64,000 bases of DNA from positions 321,960-385,959 of the forward strand of contig CAVPSV010000004.1 of NCBI GenBank assembly GCA_963708625.1. Reading direction: 5' to 3'. A program made the translations under genes and the position numbers. Source of the stretch: an uncultured Actinomycetota bacterium (lineage in GTDB: Bacteria; Actinomycetota; Actinomycetes; Mycobacteriales; Jatrophihabitantaceae). Positions 6,886-45,604 of this stretch are shown here, piece after piece (within the stretch, counting starts at the first letter, position 1; every line of letters starts with the position of its first letter). The notes beneath the pieces were generated by a model, which did no database searches, was not told where the DNA came from, and saw only the letters and a list, made by a program, of their open reading frames with translations.

Positions 6886-7506
6886 GGTGCTGCAGCCGCG
6901 CGAGCGGCCGCGGCCCGGCGAGGCGTGCGAGATGTGCGGCGAGCCGATCGCCGAGCCGCACAGCCACGTCGCGAGCCTCAGCGAGCGGCGGCTGCTGTGC
7001 ACCTGCCGCGCCTGCTACCTGCTGTTCACCGCCCAGGGCGCCGGCGCGCCGGCGGCTGCGCGCTGTGCCGGAGCGGGTCGTGCTGGCCAGCGACTTCACC
7101 TTCACCCAGGCGCAGTGGGACGACCTGGCGATTCCGGTCGATCTCGTGTTCCTGTTCCAGCAGAGCGACGTCGACGGACGTCGAGGCCCCGACGGCGCTC
7201 GTCGCCTGCTACCCGAGCCCGGCCGGCGCGACCGAGTCCGAGCTCGACCTCGTCGGCCTGGGCCGACATCGTCGCGGACAACCCGACCCTGGCCGACGTC
7301 GAGCCCGACGTCGAGGCGGTGCTGGTCCGCCGCAACGGCGAGCGGCGACTTCACCTGCCTCGTCGTGCCGATCGACGCCTGCTACGAACTCGTCGGCATC
7401 GTGCGCCAGTACTGGTCCGGCTTCCAGGGCGGCGCCGAGGTGTGGCAGCGCATCGACGACTTCTTCGCCCGGCTGCACACTCGAGCCCGCGGCCCGACGG
7501 GGCTGA
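6886..7506 (+). pseudogene. conserved Cys-rich hydrogenase-associated protein, frameshifted
   Basis: GEACEMCGEPIAEPHSHVASLSERRLLCTCRACYLLFT then RAVPERVVLASDFTFTQAQWDDLAIPVDLVFLFQQSDVD... then GDFTCLVVPIDACYELVGIVRQYWSGFQGGAEVWQRIDDFF. Each piece is in a different frame. Confidence 0.45.
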
Positions 7507-7507
7507 C

Positions 7508-9570: not shown

Positions 9571-9571
9571 C

Positions 9572-10106
9572 ATGATGCGCATCCTGGTCGCCGGCCTCGG
9601 CAACATCTTCGAAGGCGACGACGGCTTCGGCGTCGAGGTCGTGCAGCGACTGCGCACAGCGGTCGTGGCCCGAGGGCGTCGAGGTGCGCGACTTCGGCAT
9701 CCGCGGCGTGCACCTGGCCTATCAACTGCTCGAGCCCTACGACCTCGTCGTCATCGTCGATGCGGTCGCGCGCGGCGAAGCGCCGGGCACCCTCTACGTC
9801 ATCGAGCACGGCCCGGACCATGACGCCGCCGAACCGGCCGACGACGCGGCGCTGATGGACGCACACGACCTGGCCCCGGACGGCGTGCTCGCGCTCGTCC
9901 CCCGCCTCGGTGGCACGCTGGGCCGCGTCGTCGTGATCGGGTGCGAGCCCGAATCGATCACGCCGGACATGGCGCTTTCACCGGCAGTCGCGGGTAGCGT
10001 CGACAAGGCGGCCCAACTCGTGACCGACCTCGTCACCGACCTCGTCACCGACTCGTCACCGACCTCGTCACCGACCTCGTCACCGACCTCGTCACCGACC
10101 TTGTGA
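9572..10106 (+). pseudogene. hupD: hydrogenase maturation endopeptidase (HupD/HyaD/HycI family), frameshift near 9655 and inside the C-terminal repeat
   Basis: MMRILVAGLGNIFEGDDGFGVEVVQRL then (other frame) VEVRDFGIRGVHLAYQLLEPYDLVVIVDAVARGEAPGTLYVIEHGP...VVVIGCEPE. The C-terminus runs into an (LVTD)n / (SSPT)n repeat. Confidence 0.7.
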
Positions 10107-10110
10107 CGGA
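10017..10110 (+). repeat. tandem 12-nt repeat (ctcgtcaccgac) x~7 with one 11-nt unit, at the 3' end of hupD
   Basis: Direct reading gives ctcgtgaccgacctcgtcaccgacctcgtcaccgaCTCGTCACCGAcctcgtcaccgacc.... It is translated LVTDLVTDLVTD then, after the short unit, SSPTSSPTSSPT. Confidence 0.8.
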
Positions 10111-10303
10111 CCCGACGACCAACATCGTGCAGAGCGCACGGCCGGGTGCCATGCCCGGCACCGAGATACGAGTGGGAGGCGGTTGACCATGGGTCGATTG
10201 CTGGCGTACCGGATGATGCTCGGTGCCGCGGCCAGGATGTCCGTGTCGTTCTCCGACATCCGCCGTTACTTCCGAATGCGCAAGATGTGAGGGTGAGCGC
10301 GTC

Positions 10304-10534
10304 ATGTGTCTAGGCATTCCCGGACGAATCGTCGAGGTCCTCGACGGCGGCGACGTCGCGCTCGTCGACGTCGCCGGTGTCGTGCGCGAGATCAACCTGG
10401 GCATCTTGGACGGGCCGTACGACCCTGGCTCCTACATCCTGATCCACAGCGGCTTCGCGCTGGAGCACATGTCGGCCGAGCAGGCCGCGGACGCGCTGCA
10501 GGTGTTCAGCGACGGATCGATGACCTCGGGCTGA
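10304..10534 (+). CDS. hypC: hydrogenase maturation factor HypC
   Basis: MCLGIPGRIVEVLDGGDVALVDVAGVVREINLGIL...YILIHSGFALEHM, 76 aa, intact. Confidence 0.85.
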   Translation: MCLGIPGRIVEVLDGGDVALVDVAGVVREINLGILDGPYDPGSYILIHSGFALEHMSAEQAADALQVFSDGSMTSG

Positions 10535-10901
10535 AACTCCGATCCGGCACGTCGGTGCCGAGGATCAGCGACGACGCCGCGCGCTCGGGCGCGATGGCTT
10601 CGGGCACCGGCTCGGCAGCTGATTCACGCCGGTGAGGCTTCAACGGCGTCGCCGCGTCGTCCGGCTCCCACCGGTGCGCGTCGTCGGTCAGTCCGAGCAG
10701 GTAGGTGACGGTGCAATCGAGCGCCGTGGCCAGCTCGGGCAGCTTCGCCACATCCAGTCCGGTGCCGTGTTCGAGACTCGACAGCGCGCGGTTGGTGGTG
10801 TGCAGCCCGCACCGCCCGAGCCGGGTCACCACCTGCTTCTGGGTCAGCCCGAGGTCGTCGCGCCGCTGCCGCAGCCGCTGCGTGATCAACAGATGGCGCA
10901 T
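10506..10901 (-). CDS. XRE-family helix-turn-helix transcriptional regulator
   Basis: MRHLLITQRLRQRRDDLGLTQKQVVTRLG...LSSLEHG is an HTH_3 motif. The 3' end overlaps hypC convergently. Confidence 0.55.
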   Translation of the reverse strand: MRHLLITQRLRQRRDDLGLTQKQVVTRLGRCGLHTTNRALSSLEHGTGLDVAKLPELATALDCTVTYLLGLTDDAHRWEPDDAATPLKPHRRESAAEPVPEAIAPERAASSLILGTDVPDRSFSPRSSIRR

Positions 10902-10927
10902 CGAGATATCGACGTCCGAGGCGATGG

Positions 10928-11218
10928 TCACGAGTCACGCTCCCGCGCTTGACTGAGCGACGACATCTCCGCCAGCGGATAGATGTCGTAGCGAGCGAAA
11001 TTGAAGATCGGTGCCCGGGCCAGCAGCCGTTCGAACTCCTCGTGCGAGTCCACGTCGTAGATCCAGGCGCCGCCGTGCGCGCCGACGATGTGATAGCGGG
11101 CGTCCACCTTGCCCTCTTCCTCGAGGGTGGAGCCGTACTGCGCCATCCGCCCTACCGCCTGGGCCATCTCCCGGGACAGCAGGTTGAGCTCCATCCGCCA
11201 CAACACCAGGAACTTCAT
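10928..11218 (-). CDS. muconolactone-isomerase-like small protein
   Basis: 96 aa, MKFLVLWRMELNLLSREMAQAVGRMAQYG..., ferredoxin-like alpha+beta pattern typical of the MLI family. Confidence 0.35.
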   Translation of the reverse strand: MKFLVLWRMELNLLSREMAQAVGRMAQYGSTLEEEGKVDARYHIVGAHGGAWIYDVDSHEEFERLLARAPIFNFARYDIYPLAEMSSLSQARERDS

Positions 11219-11955
11219 GACGCCAACCGTTCATTGGTCACGGCGAGCTGCCAGCCGGTGCACTCACGCAGCCGGTGCAGGTTCTCCTCACAGAGGCGTT
11301 CGCAGACGGAGTCCCAGTGCAACGCGAGCCAGTCGCCCTCGACCGGACTCGCGACGAAGCCGATACCGTCGATCGCGCGGCGAACTCGCTCGGGTTCGGG
11401 CTCGGCAAGGTGCAGTGCTCGTCCGTCCCAGCGCAGGCGTTGCGACGACACGACGACGTGGTCGCCGTCGGTGTCCACGACCTGGCCCCAGCGAATGCGG
11501 CAGTTGTCGAGGACGTGCAGGGCGTGGGCCGGTAGCTCGCCGAGCAGGCGCGTCCACGGGTAGACGCCGAAGACGTGGAACCCGTGCGTGGGCGCGGCCT
11601 CCGGCAGCAAGTCCGCAGTGAGATGCCCCCAGTAGCGCCCGGCCTCCGCGCCGATGCGGTCCAGCAGCTTCACCCCGAAGTCGGCGCGATCGACCGCATC
11701 GAGCAGCGGACCACCGGTCCAGTACGCGCGCATCACCCGCTCGTCGAGTGGATCGGCGACGCCGGCCATCTCGGCAAGCAACGCCGCATACGGCCACGCG
11801 CCGGAGAACCGGCGCGCGATCGCGTGCACATCGGCGTTCGTCTCGCCGGAAACGCCCAGATCGAACAGCGCCTGCGTCTCGGCCGGCCCGCAGTAGCCCA
11901 GCTCGTTCGGTGCATAGGCGTACCGAGCGAAAAGCACCAGTCCGGGCGCGGACAT
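11215..11955 (-). CDS. conserved hypothetical protein
   Basis: 246-aa intact ORF, 4-nt overlap with the upstream gene. No motif recognised. Confidence 0.45.
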   Translation of the reverse strand: MSAPGLVLFARYAYAPNELGYCGPAETQALFDLGVSGETNADVHAIARRFSGAWPYAALLAEMAGVADPLDERVMRAYWTGGPLLDAVDRADFGVKLLDRIGAEAGRYWGHLTADLLPEAAPTHGFHVFGVYPWTRLLGELPAHALHVLDNCRIRWGQVVDTDGDHVVVSSQRLRWDGRALHLAEPEPERVRRAIDGIGFVASPVEGDWLALHWDSVCERLCEENLHRLRECTGWQLAVTNERLAS

Positions 11956-11963
11956 GGTCTGGC

Positions 11964-13098
11964 TCAGGTCCGCGCTGACTGACCGACGAGTTCCGCCGTC
12001 TCACGATGCAGCCGGCCGAAGTTGTAGTACGCCGCGCAGGCGCCTTCGGGCGACACCATGCAGGTGCCGATCGGTGTCTCGGGCGTGCATGCGGTGCCGA
12101 ACACCTTGCACTCCCACGGCTTGATCACGCCCTTGAGCACCTCACCGCACTGGCACGCCTTCGGGTCGGCCACCCGGATGCCGGGCATCTCGTACCGCAA
12201 TTCGGCGTCGAACTCCGAGTACTTGTCGTTCAGCTTGAGCGCGCTCTGGCTGATGAATCCCAGACCCCGCCATTCGAAATGCGGACGCAGCTCGAACACC
12301 TCTGCCAGTAGCGCGATGGCCTGCGGATTGCCTTCATCGCGCACGACCCGGCTGTACTGGTTCTCGACCTCGCAGCGCCCCTCGCGAATCTGCGCCAGCA
12401 GCATGTGCACCGACTGCAGGATGTCGAGCGGTTCGAAGCCGGCCACCACGATCGGCTTCCCGTACACCTCGGGCACGAACCGGTACGGCCGGTTGCCCAC
12501 GACGGTCGAGACATGGCCAGGGCCGAGGAAGCCGGACAGGCGCAGGTCGGGCGAGTCGAGGATGGCCTTGATCGGCGGCACGATCGTGACGTGGTTGCAG
12601 AACACGGTGAAGTTCGTGACGCCGAGGTCCTTGGCGCGGACCAGCGTCACCGCGGTCGACGGCGCAGTCGTCTCGAAGCCGACCGCGAAGAACACGACCT
12701 GCTTGTCCGGGTTCTCGACCGCGATGCGCAGCGCGTCCAGCGGCGAGTACACGAAGCGGACGTCCGCGCCGCGCGCCTTCGCCTCGAGCAGGCTGCCCTT
12801 GCTGCCGGGTACGCGCATCATGTCGCCGAAGGAGGTGAAGATGACGTCGGGCCGTTCGGCCAGCCACATCGCGTCATCGACGCGGCCCATCGGGATCACG
12901 CAGACCGGGCAGCCCGGCCCGTGCACCAGCTCGATGTTGGGCGGCAGGATGTGCTCGATGCCGTGCCGGTAGATCGTGTGCGTGTGCCCCCCACACACCT
13001 CCATGAACTTGAACTCGTCGTCGCGCGGCCAGCTCCTTGATGGACGCTACCAGGGCACGGGCGGCAGCCGGATCGCGGAATTCGTCGACGAACTTCAT
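11964..13098 (-). pseudogene. hypD: hydrogenase maturation factor HypD, +1 frameshift near 13010-13040
   Basis: N-terminus MKFVDEFRDPAAARALVASIKEL (frame A). Then (frame B) MEVCGGHTHTIYRHG...GPGCPVCV...CNHVT, 346 aa reading to the stop. Confidence 0.8.
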
Positions 13099-13109
13099 AG
13101 TTTTGCTCC

Positions 13110-13393
13110 CTAGACGATCGCGGTGGAGTTGAACGCGGACAGTTCGTCGGTGTAGCTCTGACCCATCTGTTTCACGGCCTCGAGCGTGAGGTCGGCTTCG
13201 TGCTGATCGATCTTTGCCATTGCGAAGCCGACGTGCACGAGCACCCAATCGCCGGCGTATCAGGTTGTCCTTCGCCAGCAGGCGCACGCTGATCGTCCGC
13301 TTGATGCCGTTCACGTCCACCTTCGCCAGGTGGTTGTCGGCGTCGACGATCTCGACCACCTGGCCGGGAATCCCGAGACACATGTCAGGTCCT
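13110..13393 (-). pseudogene. hypC: second HypC-family maturation factor, single-nt insertion near 13210
   Basis: MCLGIPGQVVEIVDADNHLAKVDVNGIKRTISVRLLAKDNL then (other frame) [32 protein letters not shown]... Confidence 0.65.
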
Positions 13394-13411
13394 CTCCTCG
13401 TGCATCGACGT

Positions 13412-14520
13412 TCAGCAGATCCGCGGCAGCGGGTCACCGACGAGCATGTCGACGATCCGGCTGCCGCCGAACGGTGTGCGCAGGGCAACGATGCCCTCGG
13501 GTTCGGCGACGATCTCGCCGATGACAGCCGCGTTCTGGCCGAGCGGATGCGGCGCGCAACGCGGCGATCGCCGCCTGCGCCTCGTCCGGCGGTACGACCG
13601 CGACGAACTTGCCCTCGTTGGCGACGTACACCGGGTCGATGCCGAGCAGGTCGCACGCGCCCTGGACCATCGGCGCCACCGGGAGCAGCTCCTCGTCGAG
13701 GATGACCGCGACCGATGCGTCCTGGGCCAGCTCGTTGCAGATCGTGCCGAGTCCGCCGCGCGTCGGGTCGCGCATCCAGCGCGTGTTCGGGGCGGCGGCG
13801 AGCAACGCCTCGACCATCGTGTGCACCGCGGCCGTGTCCGACTCGATCTCCGCTTCGATGTCCAGGTCACCGCGGGCCATCATCACCGACATGCCGTGGT
13901 CGCCGAGCGTCCCGGACAGCACCACCCGGTCGCCCGGACGCACCAGGTGCGCACCCAGTTCCCGGCCGGCCGGCATCGACGCCGATGCCCGTGGTGGTGA
14001 TGTAGAGCCCGTCCGCGGCGCCCTTCGGCACGACCTTGGTGTCGCCGGTGACGAGCAGCACGCCGGCGTCGGCCGCGGCTGCGGCCATGTCGGCGACGAT
14101 CTCCTTGAGTTCGGCGATCGCGAATCCCTCGGCGATGACGAAGGCTGCGGACAGCCACTGCGGCTTCGCGCCGCTCACCGCCAGGTCGTTCACGGTGCCG
14201 TGCACGGCGAGCTGGCCGATCGAGCCGCCGGGGAACCGGCGTGGCGAGACCACGAACGAGTCGGTGCTGAACGCCAGCCGCTCACCGGAGGGCAGCGTGA
14301 GCAGCGCGCCGTCACCGAGCTGTTCCAGCTCGGGGTTGCGGAACGCTTCGAGGAACACCGCATCGACGAGAGCCGCGGACGACTTGCCGCCCGCGCCGTG
14401 CGCGAGCGTGATCACTTCATCGATCAGCCGGGGCCGCCGCTTGCGGAAGTTCTGGATCTTCTCCAGCACGCGGTCCTCACGCGAGACGACGTCCTCGACG
14501 GGAATGATCTGACCGGTCAT
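13412..14520 (-). pseudogene. hypE: hydrogenase maturation factor HypE, at least 2 frameshifts
   Basis: MTGQIIPVED...ITLAHGAGGKSS... (13867..14520 frame). MSVMMARGDLDIEAEIESDTAAVH...GGLGTICNELA (13434..13976 frame). AVIGEIVAEPEGIVALRTPFGGSRIVDMLVGDPLPRIC (13412..13870 frame). Confidence 0.8.
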
Positions 14521-33216: not shown

Positions 33217-33407
33217 ATCTACCTCCGATGATGTCGTGCCTCGGTCGTGTCGGTCTCAGTCCGCGATGTCTGCACGCGCGGCAAGAACTCCCGGTAGACG
33301 AGTTCCCGTCCGCCGGTCGGCGCTAACACGCACGGCCCGCCACGTTTGCCCGGAGGTCAGCCCGGGTACTCGGTCCGGGTGACCCCATCTGCTGAAGGTG
33401 ACCCGGC

Positions 33408-34732: not shown

Positions 34733-34944
34733 TGAAGCGCGGCGAGCACCCACAGCGAACGCCGTTCTACGGCGCGTTGCTGATGATCGCGGGGATGCTG
34801 ATCGGTGTCGCGGTCACTGCATGGTCGCATCCGGCCGCCGCCGTGCGGGCGACGTTTTTGGTGTTCGCATTGATCGTGGCGATCATCGGCTTCGGCATGA
34901 CGATGCGGGACAACTCGCGATTTCGTCGCCGCGACGGCAGCTAA
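34733..34944 (+). CDS. small membrane protein (2 TM)
   Basis: MKRGEHPQRTPFYGALLMIAGMLIGVAVTAWS...FLVFALIVAIIGFGMT. Confidence 0.3.
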
Positions 34945-34953
34945 CCGCGCACG

Positions 34954-35613
34954 TTACGCATCCGTGACGGCAGCGAGATCGCGAACGAGACCGTCGTAAA
35001 CCTCGCGGCGCTTGGCGCCCGCCCGCAGGACCGCGGAGGGGTGGATGGTCGCGAACGCGGCGCGGGCCGGTGCCGCTCGCTGCGCCAGGGGTCCTTCGCG
35101 CGGCGGCCATGGCAGGGGTTGCCCCCGGTGCGAAGTGAGGGTGAATGCGGGCCCGAACAGCGCGGCCGTTGCCACCGCACCGAGCGCGACGAGCAGGTCC
35201 GGGCGGACGATGTCGAGTTCCGCGGCGAGCCACGGACGGCACGCGTTGATGTGCCGAGCGGCGGGCTTGTCGTGGATCCGCCGCTTGCCGCGTTCGGCAG
35301 GTTTCCAGCGGAAGTGCTTCACGGCGTTGGTCAGATAGACCTCTGCCCGGTCGATGCCGGCATCGCTCAGCGCCGAGTCCAGCAGCCTGCCCGCCGGACC
35401 GACGAAGGGCTCGCCGCGCCGGTCTTCAACGTCACCGGGCTGTTCGCCGACGAGCATGATCCGCGCAGTGCGCGGCCCGGCGCCGAAGACGGTCTGGGTG
35501 GCAGACGCGAACAGCTCGCAGCCCTGGCAGTCGGCGGCAGCGGCGGCCAGCGAGCGCAGGCTATGCGTGCGCGGAACGAACTCCTCGGCGCCGCCCGCAG
35601 ATTTCACATCCAA
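34954..35613 (-). CDS. udgX: family-4 uracil-DNA glycosylase superfamily protein of the UdgX type
   Basis: 4Fe-4S Cys pattern (CQGCEL...), motif A GEQPG, and the UdgX-specific insertion HFRWKPAERGKRRIHDKP (KRRIH loop). Confidence 0.65.
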   Translation of the reverse strand: MDVKSAGGAEEFVPRTHSLRSLAAAAADCQGCELFASATQTVFGAGPRTARIMLVGEQPGDVEDRRGEPFVGPAGRLLDSALSDAGIDRAEVYLTNAVKHFRWKPAERGKRRIHDKPAARHINACRPWLAAELDIVRPDLLVALGAVATAALFGPAFTLTSHRGQPLPWPPREGPLAQRAAPARAAFATIHPSAVLRAGAKRREVYDGLVRDLAAVTDA

Positions 35614-35736
35614 CTGATCCCCGCCCCGCGTTGAGAACTAACGACGCTCCCAGGCGATCGAGTTCGCACCGTGGCGGCTCGCCACCATGTACCTCTTTCG
35701 CGCGTCCTGACTGCGAGCATCGCATCGCTGGCCGTT

Positions 35737-35770
35737 GCGCCTAGCCGCGCCTAGCCGCGCCTAGCCGCGC
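35737..35770. repeat. 10-bp tandem repeat (ctagccgcgc) x3 spanning the GCS2 stop codon
   Basis: gcgc ctagccgcgc ctagccgcgc ctagccgcgc acgg, read directly. Each unit carries CTAG (a TAG stop on both strands). Confidence 0.7.
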
Positions 35771-36933
35771 ACGGTGAGTGCATCCAGAACCGCGTCGAAA
35801 CCCCCGGTCCGGTGGGCGGCGCGCTGCTCGTCCGCGCCCGTCCCGCGCTCGCGTAGCCGGCGCAATTCGTGCCGGACCCGCTCGACGTCGCCACTGCCGG
35901 CGAGGGAGTCTGCGACGTGGCTGAGCAACGTCTCGACGCACTCCCACGCCGGCCGCAACTGAGGCCGCTGAGCCGGCTGGTCGGCAACGTCCACCAACTT
36001 GCCGGCCATCCCCCAACGCGCGGCGCGCCAAGCGCTGGCCCGCAGAGCTTCGATGCGTTCAGCCGACCGGGACACACCGTCGCGCCACGCACGTGCTGCC
36101 GTGTCGACGAGCGCGCGGCCCAGCGCAGCGATCAAGATTGCGGTGCCCACATCGTGGTTCACGTCGGCGACCCGCAGTTCCACCGTCGGATAGTTGGCCG
36201 AGAGGCGAATGTCGAAGTAGAGCATCCCGTCATCCAGCGCGGCACCGGTGTCGAGCAGCGCCTGCTGTGTTCGGCGATAGGTGTCCAGGTCACCGAACGG
36301 CGCGGTCGGCCCGGCGGTCGGCCACTGCCCCCACAACACGCTGCGGTAGCTCGCGTAGTCGGTGTCCTCGCCGTGGTGAAACGGCGAGTTGGCGCTCAAC
36401 GCGGTGAGCAACGGCAGCCAGCGCTGCACCCGATCGATGACCGCAACGCCCTCCTCGGGCGAGTCGACCGAAACGTGGACGTGCATGCCACACGTCAGCT
36501 GCTGACGCGCAACGAGACCGAAGGCCTCCGTCATCCGCCGGTAGCGCTGATCGGCGGTGGTGGCCGGATGCCGCGCGCTCGGATGGGTGCCGCTCGCGAT
36601 CAGCCGTGCGCCGGTGTCCGCCGCGGCGGTGACGAACTCGCGACGTAGCCGTCGCAGGTCTGCCTCCAGCGCGTCGAGGTCGGACGCCGGCGACGAGCCG
36701 AGTTCGGCTTGGGCCTGCTTCAACTCGTGCTCGAACTGTCCGTCCGGGTCGCGTCCGGCCGCATCCCGAACCACCTCGTCGCCGTCGTCGGCAAGCTCGC
36801 CCCGGCCGCGAACGAGCAGAAACTCCTCCTCGACGCCGACAGTGCGGCCGTCCCACCGGTTTGGGGAATGTTTTGGCCGTATAGGGGCCACAACCTTCCC
36901 CAAACCGGTGATTGGTTCATCGCGCTCGCTCAT
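35761..36933 (-). CDS. carboxylate-amine ligase, glutamate-cysteine ligase family 2 (YbdK/GCS2)
   Basis: VGVEEEFLLV N-terminal motif and overall GCS2 architecture, 390 aa. Confidence 0.8.
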   Translation of the reverse strand: MSERDEPITGLGKVVAPIRPKHSPNRWDGRTVGVEEEFLLVRGRGELADDGDEVVRDAAGRDPDGQFEHELKQAQAELGSSPASDLDALEADLRRLRREFVTAAADTGARLIASGTHPSARHPATTADQRYRRMTEAFGLVARQQLTCGMHVHVSVDSPEEGVAVIDRVQRWLPLLTALSANSPFHHGEDTDYASYRSVLWGQWPTAGPTAPFGDLDTYRRTQQALLDTGAALDDGMLYFDIRLSANYPTVELRVADVNHDVGTAILIAALGRALVDTAARAWRDGVSRSAERIEALRASAWRAARWGMAGKLVDVADQPAQRPQLRPAWECVETLLSHVADSLAGSGDVERVRHELRRLRERGTGADEQRAAHRTGGFDAVLDALTVRG

Positions 36934-36950
36934 CAGGTGTTCACCGGCCG

Positions 36951-37533
36951 CTAGTCGACGATGCCTTCGCGCTGGGCGACCGAGCCCGGCACTGTGGTCC
37001 AGACATCCATCAGGAAATCGTCCTCGACGTGCCGCGCCAACCGATACATGCCGACACCAAGCGCGGCATGGACCACGTCCGCGGACTGCGGATAGTCCGG
37101 TGCGCTATGGCGCCAATGACATGCCACGACGACCGCGTCGCGCCGAAGCAGTCCGTGCACCGCCGACCGCAACGCGTCGAGGTCGGCAACGTAGTAGCCG
37201 ACCTCGGACAGCACGACGAGATCGAAGGTCCCGGGCGGCAGGTCGTCCGGTAGCGATCCCTCGCACACCGTGACGCCCGGAAAGTCGGCCGCGTGTTGTC
37301 GAGTGAGCTCAACGGCCCGCGGCACCACGTCCATGGCGAGCACCTCGTCGCAGCGCTCGGCAAGCTGCCGGGTGACCAGACCGAGGGCGCAGCCCGGCTC
37401 GAAGGCCCGCTCGAACCGCTCCCGCGGCAGGGCCGCCATCAGCAGCGCGAGCTTGCGCCGCTCGTAGAACCCCCGCGCCAGACCCCACGGATCGTCGCTG
37501 GCGGCATAGAGATCGTCGAAGTAGCCGGGTCGC
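36951..37533 (-). CDS. class I SAM-dependent methyltransferase (NodS-like)
   Basis: GTG start overlapping the stop of the PIG-L gene (cTGAccGTG). Motif I EPGCALGLVTRQL. 194 aa. Confidence 0.6.
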
Positions 37534-37537
37534 ACGG

Positions 37538-38308
37538 TCAGGTCCCGGCCGGAGTGATGACCAAGAAGCACTCGAAATCGCGGGCGAAATAGGCCAGCGA
37601 GTCCGGGCCGACGACCGCCTCGTCGCCAGCATCCGCGGACAGCGGCTGGATCTGGCTCGGAAAGCACGCGATCGCCGCCTGTTTCCGTTCGCGCCGTTCG
37701 GCGCCTAGCGTCAATCGGCGGGTAGCCGCGGCCTCGGGATCGAGTTCGGCGAGTTCCTGGCGCGCGGCCCAGTGCCAGGCCCAGATCGGAAACTCCAGCA
37801 GCTCGATGCCAGGCTCCGCGGCGACGACAGCCCGTGCGGCCCGCGCACATGCCTCGTGATCGGGATGACGATCGTGTGCCCACGGCGCGAGCAGCACCGT
37901 GTCGCCCGAGCAAGCCCGCCGCAGGGCCGTGCACAGTTCGCCGGCGTGTGCCGCGAGCTCGCCGTCGGGCAAGCCGAGGAACTCCAGCGTGGCCTGGGGC
38001 GCCAGCGTGGCCATCGCGTCGGCGACCTCGTTCTTGCGTAGCGCGGCCAGGCGAGCAGGCGAATGCGTGCGCGATCGCGGATGCGATCCCGCTCCGTCGC
38101 TGGCCACGATGACGTGCACGTCCAGGCCGGTGTCGGCGGCGAGCCCGATCAGGCCGGCAGCGCCGAGTGTCTCGTCGTCGGGGTGGGCCGACAACACAAC
38201 CAGCCGCGTCCCGGTGAGCGTCTCCAGTTCAGGAGCCGCTCGCAGCCACGCGCACTCCTGCCAGGCCCGCTCACTGGTACCCGGCAGCTGGCCGTCGAAC
38301 GTGCTCAC
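37538..38308 (-). CDS. PIG-L/LmbE-family N-acetylglucosaminyl deacetylase
   Basis: VVLSAHPDDETLGAAG...HRDHEA is the zinc-binding pattern of the MshB/BshB family. Confidence 0.75.
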   Translation of the reverse strand: MSTFDGQLPGTSERAWQECAWLRAAPELETLTGTRLVVLSAHPDDETLGAAGLIGLAADTGLDVHVIVASDGAGSHPRSRTHSPARLAALRKNEVADAMATLAPQATLEFLGLPDGELAAHAGELCTALRRACSGDTVLLAPWAHDRHPDHEACARAARAVVAAEPGIELLEFPIWAWHWAARQELAELDPEAAATRRLTLGAERRERKQAAIACFPSQIQPLSADAGDEAVVGPDSLAYFARDFECFLVITPAGT

Positions 38309-39292
38309 GCCTCAGCAGCCAACAGGCGTGCGCCGAGCGCGGCCAGGTCTCGCTCGGCGTGATGCTGCCGGACGTAGAGCTCGAGATCGGCGACCCGCCG
38401 CACGTGCACCGGGTCGAAGCCCAGCGGCCTGGGCCCGAGTGCATGTGCGACGTGCCGCAGCGTCAGCTCCACCGCGTCGGCAACCACGGCGCGCACCCGC
38501 AGGGCCAGTAGTGCAGCGTCGGATACATCCGCGGCATCGATCGCGGTTGCCGCCGCGGCCAGTACGGTTCGCGCCCCGTGCAGGGCAGCGTCGACGGCGC
38601 CGAGGTGCATCTCGCCCAGGCTGCCGCCACGGCTGCCACCGGCCACCCCGTCGCGCAGCGTGGCGGCCAGTCCCGCTGCTCCGCCCAGCCAGCACGCCGC
38701 AACGCCGAGACCACCCCAGGCGAAACCCGGACGGATGAGGTACCACTCGGGCGCACCGACCGGCGTCGCAGCCACCGCGTCGAAGTGGACGGGCACGGTC
38801 GCGACGGTGCGCAGCCCGCGGGCCACCCATGCCTGAGTCGCCTCCGCATGCACCCCGCCTGCACGCAGATCCACCGCGAACAGGCGGCGGCCGTTCTCGG
38901 CGCGAGCGGTCACCAGGCCGTGATCCAGCGACCCGCCGAGCGAGCACCAGGGCTTGGTGCCGGTCACCGTCCAACCCTGCTCGGACTCCTTCGCCTCGAG
39001 TTGCACATCGGGCGCCTCCGCGGCGAAGACGCCCCAACTGCCGGGTTTCGGGTCGAGACCGGCCTCGGCAAGGATGGCGAGCGCGTCGGCGTGGGCTTCG
39101 AGCACCCGCGCCACAGTCAGGTCCACTTCGGCGACGGCAGCCAACAGCGACCAGCGCAGCGCGGTTCGGCCGCGCCCCGGTTCGGGCAGCCGATGACCGA
39201 ACTCGACGGCGACATCGATCGCGGCGACGGCGTCGTCGCTGGCACCGCGCGCGGCGGACAGCAGCGACTCGGCCCACTCCACGATCGCCATG
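38305..39292 (-). CDS. acyl-CoA dehydrogenase-like protein (short form)
   Basis: MAIVEWAESLL...GWTVTGTKPWCSLGGSLDHGLVTA...; ACAD middle and C-terminal domains. ATGA overlap with the PIG-L gene. Starts 2 nt after the Rieske stop. Confidence 0.55.
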
Positions 39293-39293
39293 C

Positions 39294-40195
39294 CTAGACC
39301 GGGTTCGATCGCAGTGCACGCGCCTCTTCGGGGCGGCGCACCTGGACCCGCTCGCCGACGATGCGGGCTTCGAAGCTTGGCTGTGGCCGGGTGGCCGGAC
39401 CGCGCACCACGACGCCGGTGCTGAGATCGAAGATGCTGTGGTGCCACGGGCAGACGATGCAGTCGTTCTGGAGCTCGGCCGTCGTGCAGCGGCCCACCGC
39501 GGTGGGTGCAGCGATCGGCCAGCGCGACCAGCCCGGTCTCCAGACGCACGACCAGCACCGCGGTTTCCCCAGCCGCGCCGTGCAACCGGGCGCCCACCGC
39601 GGCCACCTCCGATGCCGTGCCGATGTCGGCCCACTCGGCATCCATGTGCTGGAACGCGGTGGTGTCGACGCCGACCCCGAGGGCGTAGGTGAGATGGCCG
39701 CCCAGCCACCCTCCGACGGAAAGGACGCCCGAACCGAGCAGGGCCAGCGCTACCCCGCGCGCATGACGTCCCCGACCGCGCGCCGACCAGCTACCGGCAT
39801 AGCATCCGATCGCGGTCGCGTTCGTCAGCCGCATGAACGAGTCCGACACGGCGCTCGGCGCCGCCGGTGTCGAGCCAATCGGACCAGCCGGTGACTGCCG
39901 TCGGTGCCGCGGTCAGCAGTCCGAATCCCACCAGCCGGCGGGCACTGCGCCGTGCTGCTCGGCCACCCACGATGTCGAGCAGACCCGCCGAGGCCCACGC
40001 ACCCATCGGTACCGCCACGATCGCCGGGTGTACCGCGTGGCCGATCGGCGTGCCGGAGGCGAGATCGCGCGCGCGCCCGGTGCGCACGCTGTCGGGCACC
40101 ACGGCGGCGATCCGGTCGGCGATCGCATCGAGGAACGACGCGCGTTCGATCGCGTGCGTGATGCGGTCAGCGCGGCGTGGTCTACGGTGCGGCAC
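39294..40195 (-). pseudogene. membrane-anchored (DUF2231-like) Rieske [2Fe-2S] protein, 2 frameshifts
   Basis: TM/DUF2231 part in frame of 39791..40195. Box I CTHRGGPLHDG in frame of 38305..39849. Box II CPWHHSIFDLSTG in frame of 39294..39641. Confidence 0.55.
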
Positions 40196-40291
40196 GCTCG
40201 ACTCCTACCCGCGGCGGCCCGGGCTCACACAATGCGGCCCGGCGGTGCGCAGGCGTCGGGGCCGCTGCCGCGTACGGCGTCGTGGCGGCGG

Positions 40292-41080
40292 TCAGCCCTC
40301 GCTGGTCGCGGCCTGTCCGTACTCGACGCGGGTCGCGATGTCGCGCAGGTGGCCGGCGAAGCCGATCGAGGTTCGGCCGGCGCGGCGCGCCGAGGTACAC
40401 ACCGCAACATCCATTGCCCACGTCACGGGGATACCGGCCGCCTGCGCGCGCCGGATGAGATCGACGTCTTCCTCGTGCGGTACGGCTCGGAACCCGTCCA
40501 GGGCCAGATAGGTGTCGGCGCGAATGCCGAGGTTCGCGCCGTGGATGTGGCCGTGGCCGTCCCCGGCCAGGCCGGCCTCGTACTGCTGCCGGTACACGTC
40601 CTCGACGGCCGGTTGCCAGCACGTCCAGTCCTGCACGTCGACGGTGCCGGCGACGATCACGGCGCCGGCTCGAGCGTGCGCGGTGTGGCCGGCGATCCAG
40701 TTGGTCGGGACGAGCGAGTCGGCATCGGTGGTGGCGATCCAGATCGAGGCCGGGTCCACTGGATCCACCGCGCCGAACTCGTCAAGCAGGTGCTGGACGC
40801 CTTCTCGGCGGGCGCCGCCGACCGTGGCGGCAGCAGAGGTCATGCACCGCGAGGGCAGCGAAAGGCTGTCGAGCATGCCCGCGACAACCGCCTCGGACTC
40901 GTCGGTGCAGCTGTCCAGGACCACAACCGTGAGCACGGGAAGCGTCGCGGAGGCGACGGCCGCCGAGAGCGCGCGCAAGCAGCCGGGAAGTGCCAACTCC
41001 TCGTTGCGGGCCGGGACCACGATCCCCACCCGCTCGATGTCCACGCGCGCCGCAGTCATCTCCGCAGGCTCACTCACCAT
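40292..41080 (-). CDS. family-2 glycosyltransferase
   Basis: GIVVPARNEE...VVVLDSCTDES...TTDADS is a GT-A fold DxD region. Confidence 0.6.
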   Translation of the reverse strand: MVSEPAEMTAARVDIERVGIVVPARNEELALPGCLRALSAAVASATLPVLTVVVLDSCTDESEAVVAGMLDSLSLPSRCMTSAAATVGGARREGVQHLLDEFGAVDPVDPASIWIATTDADSLVPTNWIAGHTAHARAGAVIVAGTVDVQDWTCWQPAVEDVYRQQYEAGLAGDGHGHIHGANLGIRADTYLALDGFRAVPHEEDVDLIRRAQAAGIPVTWAMDVAVCTSARRAGRTSIGFAGHLRDIATRVEYGQAATSEG

Positions 41081-41083
41081 GGA

Positions 41084-41335
41084 TCACTGCTCGGCTGCCA
41101 CGCAATGCGCGAGGCTGCTCGGCCGCATGAGTTCCACCCGCCCGTTCGCAAACTGAACCTCGACCTCGCCGGCGGGCGAGATGCCGGCCACCTCGCCGCG
41201 AGTCCCGCGCGCAACCCGAGGCCGGAACAGGCCGACCGCGTAGAGCGCAACGACACAATCGCCGACGCTGAAGGCATCGGGCCGGGGTTCGACGTCGGGC
41301 ATCACGAGCAATATGTGCCCGTAGGTGTCGTCCAA
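41084..41335 (-). CDS. small hypothetical protein (83 aa)
   Basis: ORF only. 4-nt spacing to the GT2 gene. Confidence 0.25.
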   Translation of the reverse strand: MDDTYGHILLVMPDVEPRPDAFSVGDCVVALYAVGLFRPRVARGTRGEVAGISPAGEVEVQFANGRVELMRPSSLAHCVAAEQ

Positions 41336-41419
41336 CTATCCATCGGGGAACGGATGATCGGTTTCCGTGCCGCAACGGGCGGGCAGGGCGGCGGGATCAG
41401 CAGCCGCCCCGGGCCAGGA

Positions 41420-42427
41420 TCAGTCGTAGTGCCGCTCGGTGTTCACCCATTGATCAATGAGCTCCCACTGGCGCTCGAGCCAGGTGCGGATGGCTTGCTC
41501 CTCGCGCGGAACGTCTGCCGCGGGGTGCAGCCACACCCGGATTCGCATGGGTCGAAGGTGCAGCGGCAGCGCTCGCCAGATCTGCCCGGGGTTCACCAGC
41601 CTGTCCAGTCCCGCGTGCGCGACGACGAGCACATCGGTGTCGTTGCGCGCGGACAACGCTGCCACCGTGCCGCCGGGCCGGGGTGGCAGCACGTTGGTGC
41701 GAGCGCGGACGCGATCTGCTTCTCGCCGGCGGCCGGCTCGCAGTAGCCGCACCACGGACCGGCGGTGCCGGCGCGGGGTCCAGTTGCCGCCTTCGGGGAA
41801 GAGCAAGAGGGCGTCGCTCGGCTCCAATTGGCGGCACAGTTCGGCGACGGCCGCGGCGCGGTCCTCGCCCGCGCCCGACGTCGAGGGCAGGAATTCGCAG
41901 TCGAGGCGGGTCAGCACGACGTCCAAGCCGGGGTCCCATTGCAACGCCTGCTTGAGGATGACCCGCGGGTTGCGGTCCAACCGGGTCGTCAGCAGGTGGA
42001 CGAGGGTGAACGAGTCGCCCGGTCCGGCATGGCGGGCCAGCACCACCAGTGGTCGGTCGTGCTGGGCCAGCGGTTGGCTGCCGACGAACTGCACGTCGTA
42101 GCCGAGCAGCGCGTGCGCGGCAGCCAGTAGTCGGGTCAGGGTACGAGCCAGCAGGGCGGAATGCCGCTCCCGCCACTGCAGCTCGTCGCGATCAGCGTTG
42201 GGATAGCGCAGCCACAGCCAGGTGCAGCCGAGCAGCAACCGTAGATCCAGGTACAGGTACACAGCGCCCAGCAGCGCGACGCGCAGCACGCGGCGCCTTC
42301 GGGTGAACGGCGCGAGCACCGCAGCTACCAGCGCCGTCGCGAGGAGCAGCAGGCCGAGCGCGATCGCCAGCGGGATCCAGAGTGGGTCAATGGCCAGGCG
42401 GCGGATCGCTCGGGGCGGCACCTTCAC
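41420..42427 (-). CDS. PlsC-family lysophospholipid acyltransferase with N-terminal TM segments
   Basis: HxxxxD motif (LARHAGPGDS) and downstream PEGG-like region (LFPEGGNWTP). Confidence 0.6.
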   Translation of the reverse strand: MKVPPRAIRRLAIDPLWIPLAIALGLLLLATALVAAVLAPFTRRRRVLRVALLGAVYLYLDLRLLLGCTWLWLRYPNADRDELQWRERHSALLARTLTRLLAAAHALLGYDVQFVGSQPLAQHDRPLVVLARHAGPGDSFTLVHLLTTRLDRNPRVILKQALQWDPGLDVVLTRLDCEFLPSTSGAGEDRAAAVAELCRQLEPSDALLLFPEGGNWTPRRHRRSVVRLLRAGRRREADRVRARTNVLPPRPGGTVAALSARNDTDVLVVAHAGLDRLVNPGQIWRALPLHLRPMRIRVWLHPAADVPREEQAIRTWLERQWELIDQWVNTERHYD

Positions 42428-43262
42428 CTAGCTGTCGACCGTCTCGACGCCATCCAGGTAGCGCATGGAAGCCCGGTAGGCGGCGTCGATCCGTGCGGTC
42501 ACCCCGCGGGTGCTTCGGTAGCGCACATTGACCGACGGTGTCGCGCCACCGCCGGTCGGCAACACGTGCACCTCGACACCGGCGGGCAACCGGCTCATCT
42601 CTTCCACGAACCGGTGCCGGCGCGCGATCTCGAATGCCACCAGGGCAACCTCCCACGGCCACCTCGGCGGGCGCAGCGGCTGTTCGATCCGACCCACGTG
42701 CAGGACGAAGATCCGCTCTGCGCCCAACTCGACGGCTCGCCCGACCGGGATGGAGTGCACCAGCCCGCCGTCGAAGAAGTGTTCTTCCCCCACTCGCTGC
42801 GGCCGGAAACAGGCCAGGCACCGCACAGGAAGCAACGACGGCATCCGCGAGCGAGCCCTCGCTGAACCAATGTGCAGCGGAACGCTCGATGCTCGCGGCC
42901 ACGCATTCGAAATGGATCGGGAGCTCCTCGAACCGTTGCACCGGCAATCGCTGCCGAATCAATTGCCGCAACGGCTCGGCCGACTGCAGGTGCGTGCGAT
43001 GCCTGGCCAGCCGGGCAGCTTGGGACATGACCGAGTCGGCGAAGACGCCCGCTTCGGAGAACGAGGACCACAATTCACGAAGCACCTGCACCGACGCGGT
43101 GGACAGGCCCGTTGCGATCATTGCTCCGTTGACCGCGCCGACGCTCGCGCCGACCACCAGATCCGGACGAACGTCGCGCTCGGCCAACGCCGCCAACATG
43201 CCCACCTGCGCCGAACCGAGAACGCCGCCGCCACCGAGCACCAGGGCGGTTCGGCGAGCCAT
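42428..43262 (-). pseudogene. patatin-like phospholipase, frameshift near 42850
   Basis: GGGVLGSAQVGML...GASVGAVNGA (Gly-rich region and GxSxG Ser) in the 42387..43262 frame. C-terminal DGG motif region EHFFDGGLVHSIPV in the 42428..42844 frame. Confidence 0.7.
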
Positions 43263-43354
43263 CCTCGCAGGATATCGACGCGGTGCCCGCGGGGTAGCCG
43301 ATCGCTGACCCGCACCGTTTGACCCGGCGCCCGGTGGGTAAGCCGTTTGGCATG

Positions 43355-43915
43355 GGCAATGAACTCAACGGAAAGAAGATCGCGTTTCTGGTCGCGAACG
43401 AGGGCGTCGAAGAGGTGGAACTCACCTCGCCATGGGATGCCGTGCAGCGCGCCGGCGGTGAGCCGGTCCTGATAGCTCCGAAGACCGGCGACGTGCAGAC
43501 GTTCAACCACCTGGACAAGAGCGACGTCTATCAAGCCACCGTGCAAACCGGCGAACTCGACGTGGCGGCCTACGACGGTGTGGTCCTGCCGGGTGGCGTC
43601 GCCAATCCCGACCAGCTACGCACCGACGACGCCGCGGTGTCATTCCTGCGGCAGTGGACGCGGGCCGGCAAGCCGATCGCCGCGATCTGCCACGGACCGT
43701 GGACGCTCGTCGAGGCAGATGCCGTCCGAGGCAAGACCTTGACCAGCTGGCCGAGCCTGAAGACCGACATCCGCAACGCCGGTGGTGAGTGGGTGGACGA
43801 GCAGGTGTCTCGCTGCGAGGCCGGCGACTACACCCTCATCACCAGCCGCAAACCCGATGATCTCGAGGAATTCGACAAGGCGCTCGTGGATCTGTTCGGG
43901 CGCCGCGTCGACTAG
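43355..43915 (+). CDS. DJ-1/PfpI-family protein
   Basis: KIAFLVANEGVEEVEL...AICHGPW (nucleophile Cys elbow). Confidence 0.75.
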   Translation, partial: GNELNGKKIAFLVANEGVEEVELTSPWDAVQRAGGEPVLIAPKTGDVQTFNHLDKSDVYQATVQTGELDVAAYDGVVLPGGVANPDQLRTDDAAVSFLRQWTRAGKPIAAICHGPWTLVEADAVRGKTLTSWPSLKTDIRNAGGEWVDEQVSRCEAGDYTLITSRKPDDLEEFDKALVDLFGRRVD

Positions 43916-45512
43916 TAGCGGTTCAGCCAGCGATCCAACGGTCGCCGGCCATCCGGGTCGTACATCGTTCGGTACAGCGGCGTCGCCCAGGCACGAGTTC
44001 GTGCTGGCAGGTGCGCCGATGGCAGCGGTCGTAGTTGCCCGGCCGGACGCGGACTCGTGCCCTCCCCCGCCGCCCAGCGCTCGAGTCGTTCGGCGGCGTC
44101 GGCGAATGCGGTGAATGTCGTCTCCGGATCCGCCAGGTCGATCTCGTCCTGCTCGGACAGGCCCAAGTGTTCGCGCGCGAGCGCGACGCGCAGATCTCGG
44201 GCGTACGCCCGCGGCTCGTCCGCGTCCGAGCTTCCTCCGCTGTGCGCACCGGCAGGGGTGTGGTCCCAGATCGAGGCGGTGAGTTCGGAGTCGTGCGTCC
44301 AGGAGCGTCGATTGAAGTTGTCCGATCCGGTGGTGGCCCACACGTCGTCGATGACGCACACCTTGGCGTGCACGTAGATCGGCGTGCCGGCTCGGTTCTC
44401 GATGCCGTACACACCCACCCGGCCTGGCGCAGCGGCGAGGATCGAGGCCAGCGCGGCCGCGCGACCGACGAGGTTCGGCGGCATCGCGACCTTGCCGTCC
44501 TGATCGGGGTGCAGCGGCAAGACGGCGATCATCCGGAGTTCGGACTGTTTGCGCAAGGCATCGGCGATGCACGTCGCGACCTCACGTGACCACAGGTACT
44601 GGTCCTCGATGTAGATCAGCCGGCGCGCTTGCCGCATCGCCTTGACGTAGCCACGCGCCACGCTTCGCTCCCCACGTGGCGCGAACTGGTACCCACCCAG
44701 CCGCGGCGGATACGTGCGTAGCAGCTGCACCGAATGCGAGCCGCTGGCAGTCGGTGCCGGTGCCCGGGGCGGCAGCGGCGCTCGCGCGTCGTCGTCGGAA
44801 CGAAGGCGATCGGCCAGGATGTGCAACGGGTTGCGCGTGAGGGGTTGGGGGTCGCTCCATCGTTCGCGGAACACGGTTTCGACGGCCGCGACAGCGGGCC
44901 CCTGGATCGCGAGCTGCACGTCGTGCCAGGGTGGCCGCGGTCCGTACACCGCTGCCATCGGCTGGGCCTGCGGGTCGCCGTGGTGGTCGGCGTCGTCGCG
45001 GCGGCTGTGGCACAGGTCGATGCCGCCGAGGAACGCCACGTCGAGCGCCGGCCGCCTGGATGGCGCACGACGACGAACTTCTGATGATGCGAGCCACCGA
45101 CGCGCACCCGCATGTCGAGGACGCAGTGCCCGCCGGCGGCGTTGATCTCCTCGTCCAGGTGCCGGTTTTCCTTCGCCGAGAACTGGAACCGATCGAGATG
45201 TGATCGCCAGACCAAGCCGTACACGCCGACGCCCCGCGCAGCGGCGCGGCACAGCAGCGGCGCTATCTGGGAGTCGCTGTCGCTGGTGAGTTGCTCGTCG
45301 GGATCGCCGCGCCAGTCAGCGAACATGATCGTGTCGCCGGAGCGGGTTCGGGTGATCGTCTCGGCGAGTTCAGCGAAGTACACCGAGCCGTGGATGAGTG
45401 GACGGACGTGGTTGCCGTCGCTCCACGCGGTACCGGGTGCGGCGTCGTCGTCGAGCACGGTCGCGGGGTTTCCCCGCTCGGCTCGACTGAGCATCCAGTC
45501 CTGTATCGGCAT
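43912..45512 (-). pseudogene. phospholipase D / cardiolipin-synthase-like protein with two HKD motifs, frameshift near 45050
   Basis: HKD-1 HHQKFVVV in the 44616..45512 frame. HKD-2 HAKVCVIDDVWATTGSDNFNRRS in the 43912..45252 frame. Confidence 0.75.
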
Positions 45513-45604
45513 CCCTTCTGCCTACAGGGGGCACACACGGCTGACAATGAGACCGCGAGCTTTACCGCCGTTTGACGCGCCGATCGGCGGGGTAGGTCAC
45601 ACCC

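Follow-up and report, generated by a model that had tools for sequence, protein, structure and literature searches.

Mycothiol and bacillithiol (MshA/B/C/D and BshA/B/C, respectively) are made by way of an N-acetylglucosamine (GlcNAc) glycoside, formed by a retaining GT4 glycosyltransferase (MshA or BshA), from which a zinc enzyme of the PIG-L family removes the acetyl group, and both pathways include a cysteine ligase (MshC or BshC). In Nod factor biosynthesis, the CE4 deacetylase NodB strips the acetyl group from a terminal GlcNAc, which NodS then N-methylates with S-adenosylmethionine (SAM), in a pathway that also features a NodC-type synthase and NodA. The tailoring of aminoglycosides and glycopeptides combines deacetylation of GlcNAc glycosides by PIG-L enzymes (BtrD/NeoL type, Dbv21/Orf2* type) with aminosugar N-methylation (gentamicin 3''-N-methyltransferase), and lipid-linked aminosugar pathways have the same start of GlcNAc glycoside and deacetylation in common. 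Here we describe a cassette with likenesses to all of these in a 64,000-nt stretch of DNA (the window, about 69% G+C) from an uncultured bacterium of the Jatrophihabitantaceae, Actinomycetota (contig CAVPSV010000004.1, positions 321,960 to 385,959). It encodes a GT2 glycosyltransferase, a PIG-L/LmbE de-N-acetylase, a NodS-like methyltransferase and a flavoprotein of the acyl-CoA dehydrogenase (ACAD) fold. By family assignment it belongs to none of the above pathways, and its flavoprotein is an enzyme that none of them has.

The same four families are found in Acinetobacter baumannii as ACICU_02432-02435, which are collinear with the genes of the window and 29–50% identical to them by tblastn. 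These genes form one co-regulated operon encoding a glycosyltransferase, a SAM methyltransferase, an LmbE protein and an ACAD-related protein, expressed at 537–2670 reads per kilobase per million mapped reads in parental strains (PMC5660220), and they lie beside BOF and blsA (PMC6240043); neither paper proposes a function for the operon. The A. baumannii order, ACAD-PIG-L-methyltransferase-GT2 without a Rieske or GCS2 gene, is a layout also seen in Xanthomonas, Comamonas, Streptomyces and Rhodococcus, whereas in the lineage of the window GT2 lies upstream and a gene for a DUF2231-Rieske protein is inserted. In order of transcription, the cassette of the window reads as follows.

40292–41080, minus strand: GT2 glycosyltransferase, 262 aa (Pfam Glycos_transf_2, E 5.3e-10); cassette core.
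39294–40195, minus strand: DUF2231 membrane domain followed by a Rieske [2Fe-2S] domain; putative cassette accessory in this clade.
38305–39291, minus strand: ACAD-like flavoprotein, 328 aa, compact acyl-CoA dehydrogenase fold; cassette core.
37538–38308, minus strand: PIG-L/LmbE zinc de-N-acetylase, 256 aa (Pfam PIG-L, E 4.7e-24); cassette core.
36951–37535, minus strand: NodS-like class I SAM-dependent methyltransferase, 194 aa (Pfam NodS, E 1.7e-13); cassette core.

We propose, with a probability of roughly 0.55, that this four-enzyme cassette, conserved across phyla, makes an N-methylated aminosugar-type product, and that in a Jatrophihabitans-like lineage a Rieske gene has been inserted between the GT2 and flavoprotein genes. 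An original prediction made from the letters of the window had placed the genes and their families correctly, all on the minus strand and in agreement with Pfam. Its account of the junctions needs some correction. The Rieske stop codon TAG is indeed followed by GC and the ATG start of the ACAD-like gene (2-nt spacing), but the overlap between the ACAD-like and PIG-L genes is GTGA rather than ATGA, PIG-L starting with GTG, and the PIG-L and methyltransferase genes do not overlap by ATGA but are separated by a 2-nt spacer (TGA-CC-GTG).

Homologues of all ten genes of a closely spaced minus-strand run at 34.9–43.3 kb, of which the cassette is part, were sought in 81 loci, namely the best 80 loci of genomes that encode a relative of the ACAD-like protein, taken with 10-kb flanks, and one contig of a metagenome-assembled genome. 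The closest named relatives of this protein belong to Jatrophihabitans species. Besides the ACAD-like gene itself (81/81 loci), the methyltransferase was recovered in 77, GT2 in 73 and PIG-L in 71 of the 81. The Rieske homologue was present in 8 loci, those of the GCS2 and UdgX genes in one each, and those of the PlsC gene, the patatin gene and a small open reading frame (ORF), orf83, in none; no other family obtained by all-against-all clustering of the flanking ORFs reached more than 14 loci. The commonest gene order is ACAD-PIG-L-methyltransferase-GT2, and the order of the window, GT2-Rieske-ACAD-PIG-L-methyltransferase, recurs in L003, L039 and L089. As judged from gene neighbourhoods, the functional unit is made up of four enzymes, GT2, PIG-L, the NodS-like methyltransferase and the ACAD-fold flavoprotein, and is represented in this window by GT2, Rieske, ACAD, PIG-L and methyltransferase. 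The neighbourhood test that the original prediction had suggested thus found GT2, ACAD, PIG-L and methyltransferase genes syntenic across phyla. Its proposal of an undescribed biosynthetic cassette holds in so far as the unit is conserved, tightly coupled and without a published function that we could find, but not as regards the composition of the cassette or its analogy with thiol biosynthesis.

The four genes are homologous and collinear in Streptomyces rimosus (with 4-nt overlaps), Comamonas antarctica and A. baumannii, and the same holds for J. telluris, Rhodococcus, one additional genome, C. endophytica and Xanthomonas campestris. When 1.84 billion proteins were searched with a profile built for the ACAD-like family, it retrieved 585 cluster representatives at E<=1e-30, 1483 at E<=1e-10 and 2231 at E<=0.001; the ACAD-like proteins are a family of their own, moderately large and distinct, and not the ACAD superfamily at large. 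PIG-L and methyltransferase, separate genes in the window, are encoded in a single frame in 66 of the 71 loci where the two occur. Other fusions (P0254, P0322, P0313, P0329 and P0306) include ACAD-PIG-L-NodS proteins of 876 and 851 aa, an ACAD-PIG-L protein, a GT2-ACAD protein of 534 aa and a sulfotransferase-GT2-ACAD protein of 962 aa, the last of which hints that the product is sulfated in some lineages. Part of these fusions could be gene-calling artefacts; their variety speaks for a single pathway that unites the four activities. On a 13.8-kb contig bearing the label Stenotrophomonas maltophilia P13 (L075) there is a cassette that is among the best 80 matches, amid actinobacterial loci, with about 52% ACAD identity; it could represent contamination or horizontal transfer.

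The PIG-L protein scores 85.8 bits against Pfam PF02585 (gathering threshold 28.2), and its motifs H42-P-D-D-E46 and D146-x-H-x-D-H-E152 are invariant across phyla; in MshB, the general base and the ligands of the zinc are supplied by motifs of the HPDDE and DxHxDHE types. The solved structures closest to the protein come from enzymes that deacetylate GlcNAc glycosides (diacetylchitobiose deacetylase, BC1534, Dbv21 and BshB), and the protein scores far below the equivalog cutoffs for BshB1 (48.7 vs 182.5), BshB2 (32.4 vs 195) and Mca (24.1 vs 277). The methyltransferase scores 51.3 against Pfam NodS (gathering threshold 24), with several Methyltransf_ families above or near their cutoffs, and shows the features of class I SAM enzymes, including an invariant motif I, E46-x-G-C-x-x-G52, and, as the acidic residue past strand 2, an invariant D69. 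Its best structural match is an uncharacterised protein (PDB 4ISC, E 2e-41); the nearest solved relatives that have been characterised are NodS (3OFJ, 8e-14) and the gentamicin 3''-N-methyltransferase (6e-6), both of which N-methylate aminosugars. Because of these relatives, and because PIG-L and methyltransferase are so often fused, N-methylation of the amine freed by de-N-acetylation would be the most economical reading, and by analogy most likely, in preference to O-methylation.

The GT2 protein (Pfam PF00535, 39.9 vs a cutoff of 23.3, with a further match to PF13641) carries an invariant DXD-type motif, T118-D119-A120-D121, and its AlphaFold model adopts a GT-A fold with a predicted local distance difference test score of 92.8. 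It is predicted to be soluble, and no transmembrane segment was found in any of the four core proteins. The ACAD-like protein has the complete three-domain ACAD fold. Canonical ACADs have their catalytic glutamate in a YEG loop joining the final two helices, or else at an alternative position in helix G. HMMER alignments end at about residue 269, beyond which helices 294–309 and 312–326 of the model enclose a loop (residues 310–311) that falls within Q309-H310-H311, with Q309 and H311 invariant across phyla. A by-eye alignment suggests that the protein lacks the canonical catalytic glutamate of the YEG motif and has the invariant Gln-x-His in its place. Known enzymes with which the flavoprotein can be compared are ACAD-fold flavoenzymes that do not dehydrogenate acyl-CoA, such as the monooxygenases DszC/TdsC, nitroalkane oxidase and the aminosugar nitrososynthases DnmZ/KijD3. 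Comparison of the cassette proteins with defence systems in PADLOC returned only a generic methyltransferase match and generic patatin phospholipase matches; a role as an anti-phage defence system was rejected, these matches being to generic domains alone.

In the pathway that we propose, the GT2 enzyme would move an N-acetylhexosamine from a nucleotide sugar onto an acceptor, PIG-L would strip the N-acetyl group, the methyltransferase would methylate the freed sugar amine and the flavoprotein would carry out one oxidation, of the product or of the acceptor. In the clade of the window, the Rieske protein would probably link the flavoprotein to the membrane redox pool, and a metabolite or glycoconjugate associated with stress is the probable product. 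This scheme shares deacetylation and aminosugar N-methylation with the tailoring of aminoglycosides and glycopeptides, but the cassette does not form part of a large secondary-metabolite cluster; it is a compact operon of three to five genes that lies among stress genes and occurs across phyla.

A catabolic or detoxifying role, in which PIG-L would be a Mca-like amidase whose substrate is an N-acyl aminosugar compound, either imported or damaged, and flavoprotein and methyltransferase would process the products, is improbable. The PIG-L superfamily does contain amidases such as Mca (a weak match here), ACAD-fold enzymes are mostly catabolic, and oxidoreductases such as zinc-dependent alcohol dehydrogenases (Zn-ADH) and SDR proteins are among the other frequent neighbours of the cassette. 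A glycosyltransferase and a SAM methyltransferase nevertheless serve anabolism, the cassette has neither a transporter nor a sugar kinase as a conserved neighbour, and fusions of all four activities favour a single pathway of the assembly type.

The five other genes of the minus-strand run are as follows.

42428–43262, minus strand: patatin gene, abutting the PlsC gene on its upstream side and first transcribed of the ten.
41420–42427, minus strand: PlsC-type membrane acyltransferase, 335 aa, with N-terminal transmembrane segments (Pfam Acyltransferase, E 1.5e-9).
41084–41335, minus strand: orf83, an ORF of 83 aa that stops 3 nt ahead of the GT2 start.
35761–36933, minus strand: GCS2 protein, a YbdK-type carboxylate-amine ligase (Pfam GCS2, E 2.9e-56); neighbour, outside the cassette.
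34954–35613, minus strand: UdgX-type uracil-DNA-binding protein (TIGR03914, 238 bits vs a cutoff of 190), 157 nt downstream of GCS2.

On the synteny data, UdgX, GCS2, PlsC and patatin are predicted to be co-directional neighbours that stand outside the pathway. In the three nearest non-identical relatives (ACAD identities 81, 79 and 75%), the gene 3' of the methyltransferase is a convergent Dps/ferritin gene (L089, L090) or is replaced by STAS and catalase genes (L003), and in J. telluris the series GT2-ACAD-PIG-L-methyltransferase is followed by genes for topoisomerase IB and DJ-1/PfpI; GCS2 follows the methyltransferase in none of these four. To have GCS2 and PlsC adjacent is thus a peculiarity of this population.

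These observations bear on the reading given in the original prediction, a low-molecular-weight thiol pathway like that of mycothiol or bacillithiol in which a GlcNAc glycoside formed by GT2 is deacetylated by PIG-L, GCS2 adds Cys or Glu to the amine, and methyltransferase, flavoprotein and Rieske protein tailor the product. A glycosyltransferase with PIG-L is indeed the first half of the msh/bsh logic, GCS2 is intact and encoded on the same strand only 17 nt past the methyltransferase stop, and its family (YbdK) has a known weak gamma-glutamylcysteine ligase activity. The GCS2 protein is best assigned by its family scores to the YbdK-type carboxylate-amine ligases (TIGR02050, 296 vs 176; NF010041, 414.5 vs a cutoff of 332; best solved relative E. 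coli YbdK, 1R8G, E 2e-26), and the alternative that it is the ergothioneine enzyme EgtA is contradicted by a score of 35.7 bits against equivalog TIGR03444, whose cutoff is 370.8. In the sole one of the 81 loci with a GCS2 gene (L056), this gene is convergent, on the opposite strand, and PIG-L, methyltransferase and GT2 are all missing; proteobacterial cassettes, which occur in glutathione users, likewise have no adjoining GCS2. The cassette moreover uses an inverting-family GT2 in place of GT4, has no MshC/BshC-like ligase, and has a PIG-L that stays far under the equivalog cutoffs for BshB and Mca. The enzyme conserved after PIG-L is the methyltransferase, whose fusion to PIG-L points to methylation as the following step. 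Amino-acid ligation after deacetylation is thus unlikely, GCS2 fails as the ligase of the pathway, and the thiol reading, now very improbable, was rejected on synteny and family scores.

The original prediction had also hinted at a link between PlsC and the cassette. A Nod-factor-like lipo-aminosugar, in which the upstream PlsC would N- or O-acylate the deacetylated and methylated sugar, would build on the parallel of deacetylation and NodS-type N-methylation with NodB/NodS, and PlsC does share its strand with GT2, at a distance of about 340 nt. PlsC and patatin homologues are however absent from all 81 loci, for which reason both were rejected as pathway members; the GT2 is small and soluble, unlike the NodC-type membrane synthase, the deacetylase is PIG-L and not a CE4 NodB, and NodA is missing. 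Such a product is hardly credible. The 83-aa ORF, called as a gene in two nearly identical contigs from independent metagenome assemblies, L001 (JGI 3300036815, 99.5% identical) and L002 (Logan SRR11836023, 99.7%), has no match in Pfam or PADLOC and none by tblastn in the 81 loci of relatives; it may encode a small protein specific to the lineage, or be spurious.

An envelope route is unlikely, but deserves more consideration. Here GT2 would load an N-acetylhexosamine on polyprenyl phosphate or a lipid, to be deacetylated and methylated by the logic of ArnC/ArnD, FlmF2/NaxD or HpnI/HpnK, pathways in which a GT2 enzyme is followed by a deacetylase. The fold matches of GT2 include ArnC and an archaeal DPM-like mannosyltransferase, some GT2 homologues are labelled carotenoid glycosyltransferases in UniRef (an automatic label), and this clade has a membrane Rieske partner. 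In addition, ACICU_02432-02435 are 31–62-fold down in two colistin-dependent A. baumannii mutants, in which flanking small genes fall too (PMC5660220). On the other hand, the four core proteins are without transmembrane segments, the cassette has no conserved neighbour encoding a flippase or transferase, soluble GT2 enzymes match the fold equally well, and the nesting of the cassette between trehalose genes described below suits a cytoplasmic solute better. In A. baumannii, the ACAD-like gene is adjoined by a divergent gene for a 77-aa DUF2171 protein (A1S_2230 / ACICU_02436; L084, 6379–6612, minus strand), reported to be extremely highly expressed and co-regulated with the operon (PMC5660220, PMC6330354).

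The DUF2231-Rieske gene lies in or beside the cassette in 8 of the 81 loci and in L089, in at least five arrangements: GT2-Rieske-ACAD-PIG-L-methyltransferase; ACAD-GT2-Rieske-PIG-L-methyltransferase; divergent from ACAD; in a separate operon downstream of PIG-L-methyltransferase; and a few kb from the cassette. The 2-nt coupling of Rieske and ACAD genes is found in the lineage of the window. The cassette-linked Rieske proteins are clear orthologues, with both cluster boxes intact and invariant in L001, L002 and nine relatives. Their DUF2231 part contains four invariant histidines, H53, H56, H121 and H167 (numbering of L001, 3710–4609, compared with nine relatives), a pattern of conservation that would fit ligation of two b-type hemes. 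The Rieske protein is plausibly a clade-specific accessory and electron partner of the flavoprotein.

Several aspects of the genomic context suggest a function in stress. In Comamonas antarctica (L086, 5547–10543) and C. endophytica (L092, 6589–11557), the cassette sits between otsA and otsB with overlapping or abutting genes, and a convergent ferritin-like gene follows in both. OtsA is trehalose-6-phosphate synthase and OtsB trehalose phosphatase. Within 10 kb of the cassette in 91 loci, raw counts made with no background control gave 13 loci with a Dps gene, 13 with a ProV-like osmoprotectant ATPase, 9 with catalase, 6 with a SigF-like sigma factor and 5 with a universal stress protein. The S. 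rimosus cassette neighbours SRPBCC, HAMP and SpoIIE-phosphatase genes, and in the window the cassette is surrounded by genes for DJ-1/PfpI, hemerythrin, HAD and DUF1206 proteins. The role of the cassette is probably stress-related, a conclusion that we hold with moderate confidence. A more specific version of the proposal, which we advance tentatively as a possibility, is that the cassette makes an undescribed stress metabolite common to Actinomycetota and Proteobacteria, A. baumannii and Xanthomonas among them. This would be an N-methylated and possibly N-oxidised hexosaminide, for which trehalose or trehalose-6-phosphate would serve as the scaffold in Comamonas, while in the Jatrophihabitans-like clade a dedicated DUF2231-Rieske protein would couple the flavin step to the membrane.

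Regulatory motifs were also considered. The window contains four matches to the SigF/SigB-type pattern GTTT-N14-18-GGGWA, where 0.63 would be expected.

33344–33368, plus strand: SigF/SigB-type match.
43317–43340, plus strand: SigF/SigB-type match.
45570–45594, plus strand: SigF/SigB-type match.
42785–42810, minus strand: SigF/SigB-type match.

Three of them directly precede genes flanking the cassette region, namely those for the HAD hydrolase, DJ-1/PfpI and DUF1206 proteins. Across relatives, GGGTA[CT] alone is mildly enriched upstream of the cassette (13/80 vs a 5% background), and a scan of 34800–43500 for sigma-70 promoters and terminators gave results at chance level. SigF/SigB control of the cassette was judged too weak to claim. 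A GAF/ANTAR regulator gene adjoins the cassette in six loci, L087 (8867–9556), L015, L016, L017, L072 and L077. The SigF-dependent GT2 gene MSMEG_1097 of M. smegmatis (PMC4694148) may be the first gene of such a cassette; a preprint lists MSMEG_1097 among genes lowered on ANTAR activation.

A number of findings weigh against the proposed pathway or its stress-related role. A full-text literature search found no functional study of the cassette, just passing mentions of the A. baumannii genes, and no member has a known substrate or product. Against the NCBIfam equivalog for NodS the methyltransferase scores 73.2, far below the cutoff of 300, so that N-methylation remains an analogy. Foldseek searches with the GT2 model returned generic GT2 enzymes only, with template modelling scores of 0.5–0.64, and are silent on donor and acceptor; deduction of the acceptor from structure was dropped for this reason. 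The statement on the catalytic loop of the flavoprotein comes from the by-eye alignment together with the secondary structure of the model. As regards the Rieske protein, a search from its side found cassette genes near 1 of 51 evaluable metagenome loci (homologues of 39–60% identity), where recurrent neighbours were a Zn-dependent dehydrogenase and topoisomerase IB, both of which also occur beside the cassette, and the protein may be no more than one further component of the stress gene islands in which the cassette lies. The DUF2231-Rieske family as a dedicated partner of the cassette was rejected on this count, the other neighbours being uninformative. Finally, the stress-neighbour counts have the raw character mentioned above, no SigF/SigB-type match lies upstream of the window cassette, and just 2 of 81 loci have the closely related pattern G[GT]TT-N14-18-GGG[TA]A ahead of the cassette (about 0.65 expected).

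The Rieske gene of the window is interrupted. The two frame breaks reported in the original prediction are real in this sequence and were traced by base-by-base comparison to 1-nt insertions relative to both L001 and L002, an extra C at 39828 and an extra A at 39475 (both in the minus-strand gene). The latter separates the CxH box of the Rieske domain from its CxxH box, and the two boxes as a result fall in different frames in a three-frame translation. Both L001 and L002 have an intact Rieske ORF of 299 codons whose product matches DUF2231 (E 1e-12) and Rieske (E 4e-16). In relatives, the ratio of non-synonymous to synonymous substitution rates (dN/dS) is 0.19–0.28 for Rieske vs 0.11–0.41 for the other cassette genes, rough values given that dS is near saturation; as far as these rough estimates go, they indicate that the gene is under purifying selection there. 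A third 1-nt insertion relative to L001, at 42802, splits the patatin gene, none of the three lies inside a long homopolymer, and a coarse map of coding potential reveals many short same-strand fragments at about 7000–14500. The absence of the insertions from L001 and L002, the patatin break and the fragmentation elsewhere make assembly indel noise at least as likely as true pseudogenisation, and we lean towards noise. Fragments across the window suggest that the source sequence has either such noise or many decayed genes. A 514-codon ORF at 38305–39849 (minus strand), composed of the middle of Rieske, an out-of-frame stretch and the entire ACAD-like gene, is a frame-shift artefact and no natural fusion. 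A PLD-like gene also appears split near 45060, with its first HKD motif in the ORF 44616–45512 and PLDc_2 in the ORF 43912–45252.

For this window, the analysis amounts to a correction, and the thiol-ligase reading should be dropped. Conserved operons of no assigned function are common, but this cassette is unusually well defined by its fusions, its spread across phyla and its clear catalytic motifs. If it does make a defined metabolite, the few pathways that begin with GlcNAc transfer and PIG-L deacetylation, those of mycothiol, bacillithiol, aminoglycosides, glycopeptides and glycosylphosphatidylinositol anchors, would gain a new class of product, and a function would be given to an operon of many soil actinobacteria, of the plant-pathogen genus Xanthomonas and of the hospital pathogen A. 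baumannii. The neighbouring trehalose, Dps and catalase genes make a role in desiccation, osmotic or stationary-phase survival testable in genetically tractable hosts.

Downstream of the cassette, some minor differences were noted. A UdgX homologue adjoins the cassette in the relative L013, where GCS2 is missing, and compared with L001 the UdgX gene of the window carries an insertion of 3 nt close to its start. Just past the GCS2 stop codon, at about 35765, the sequence CTAGGCGCGC occurs as a single copy in the window and as a 10-bp tandem duplication (two copies) in L001.

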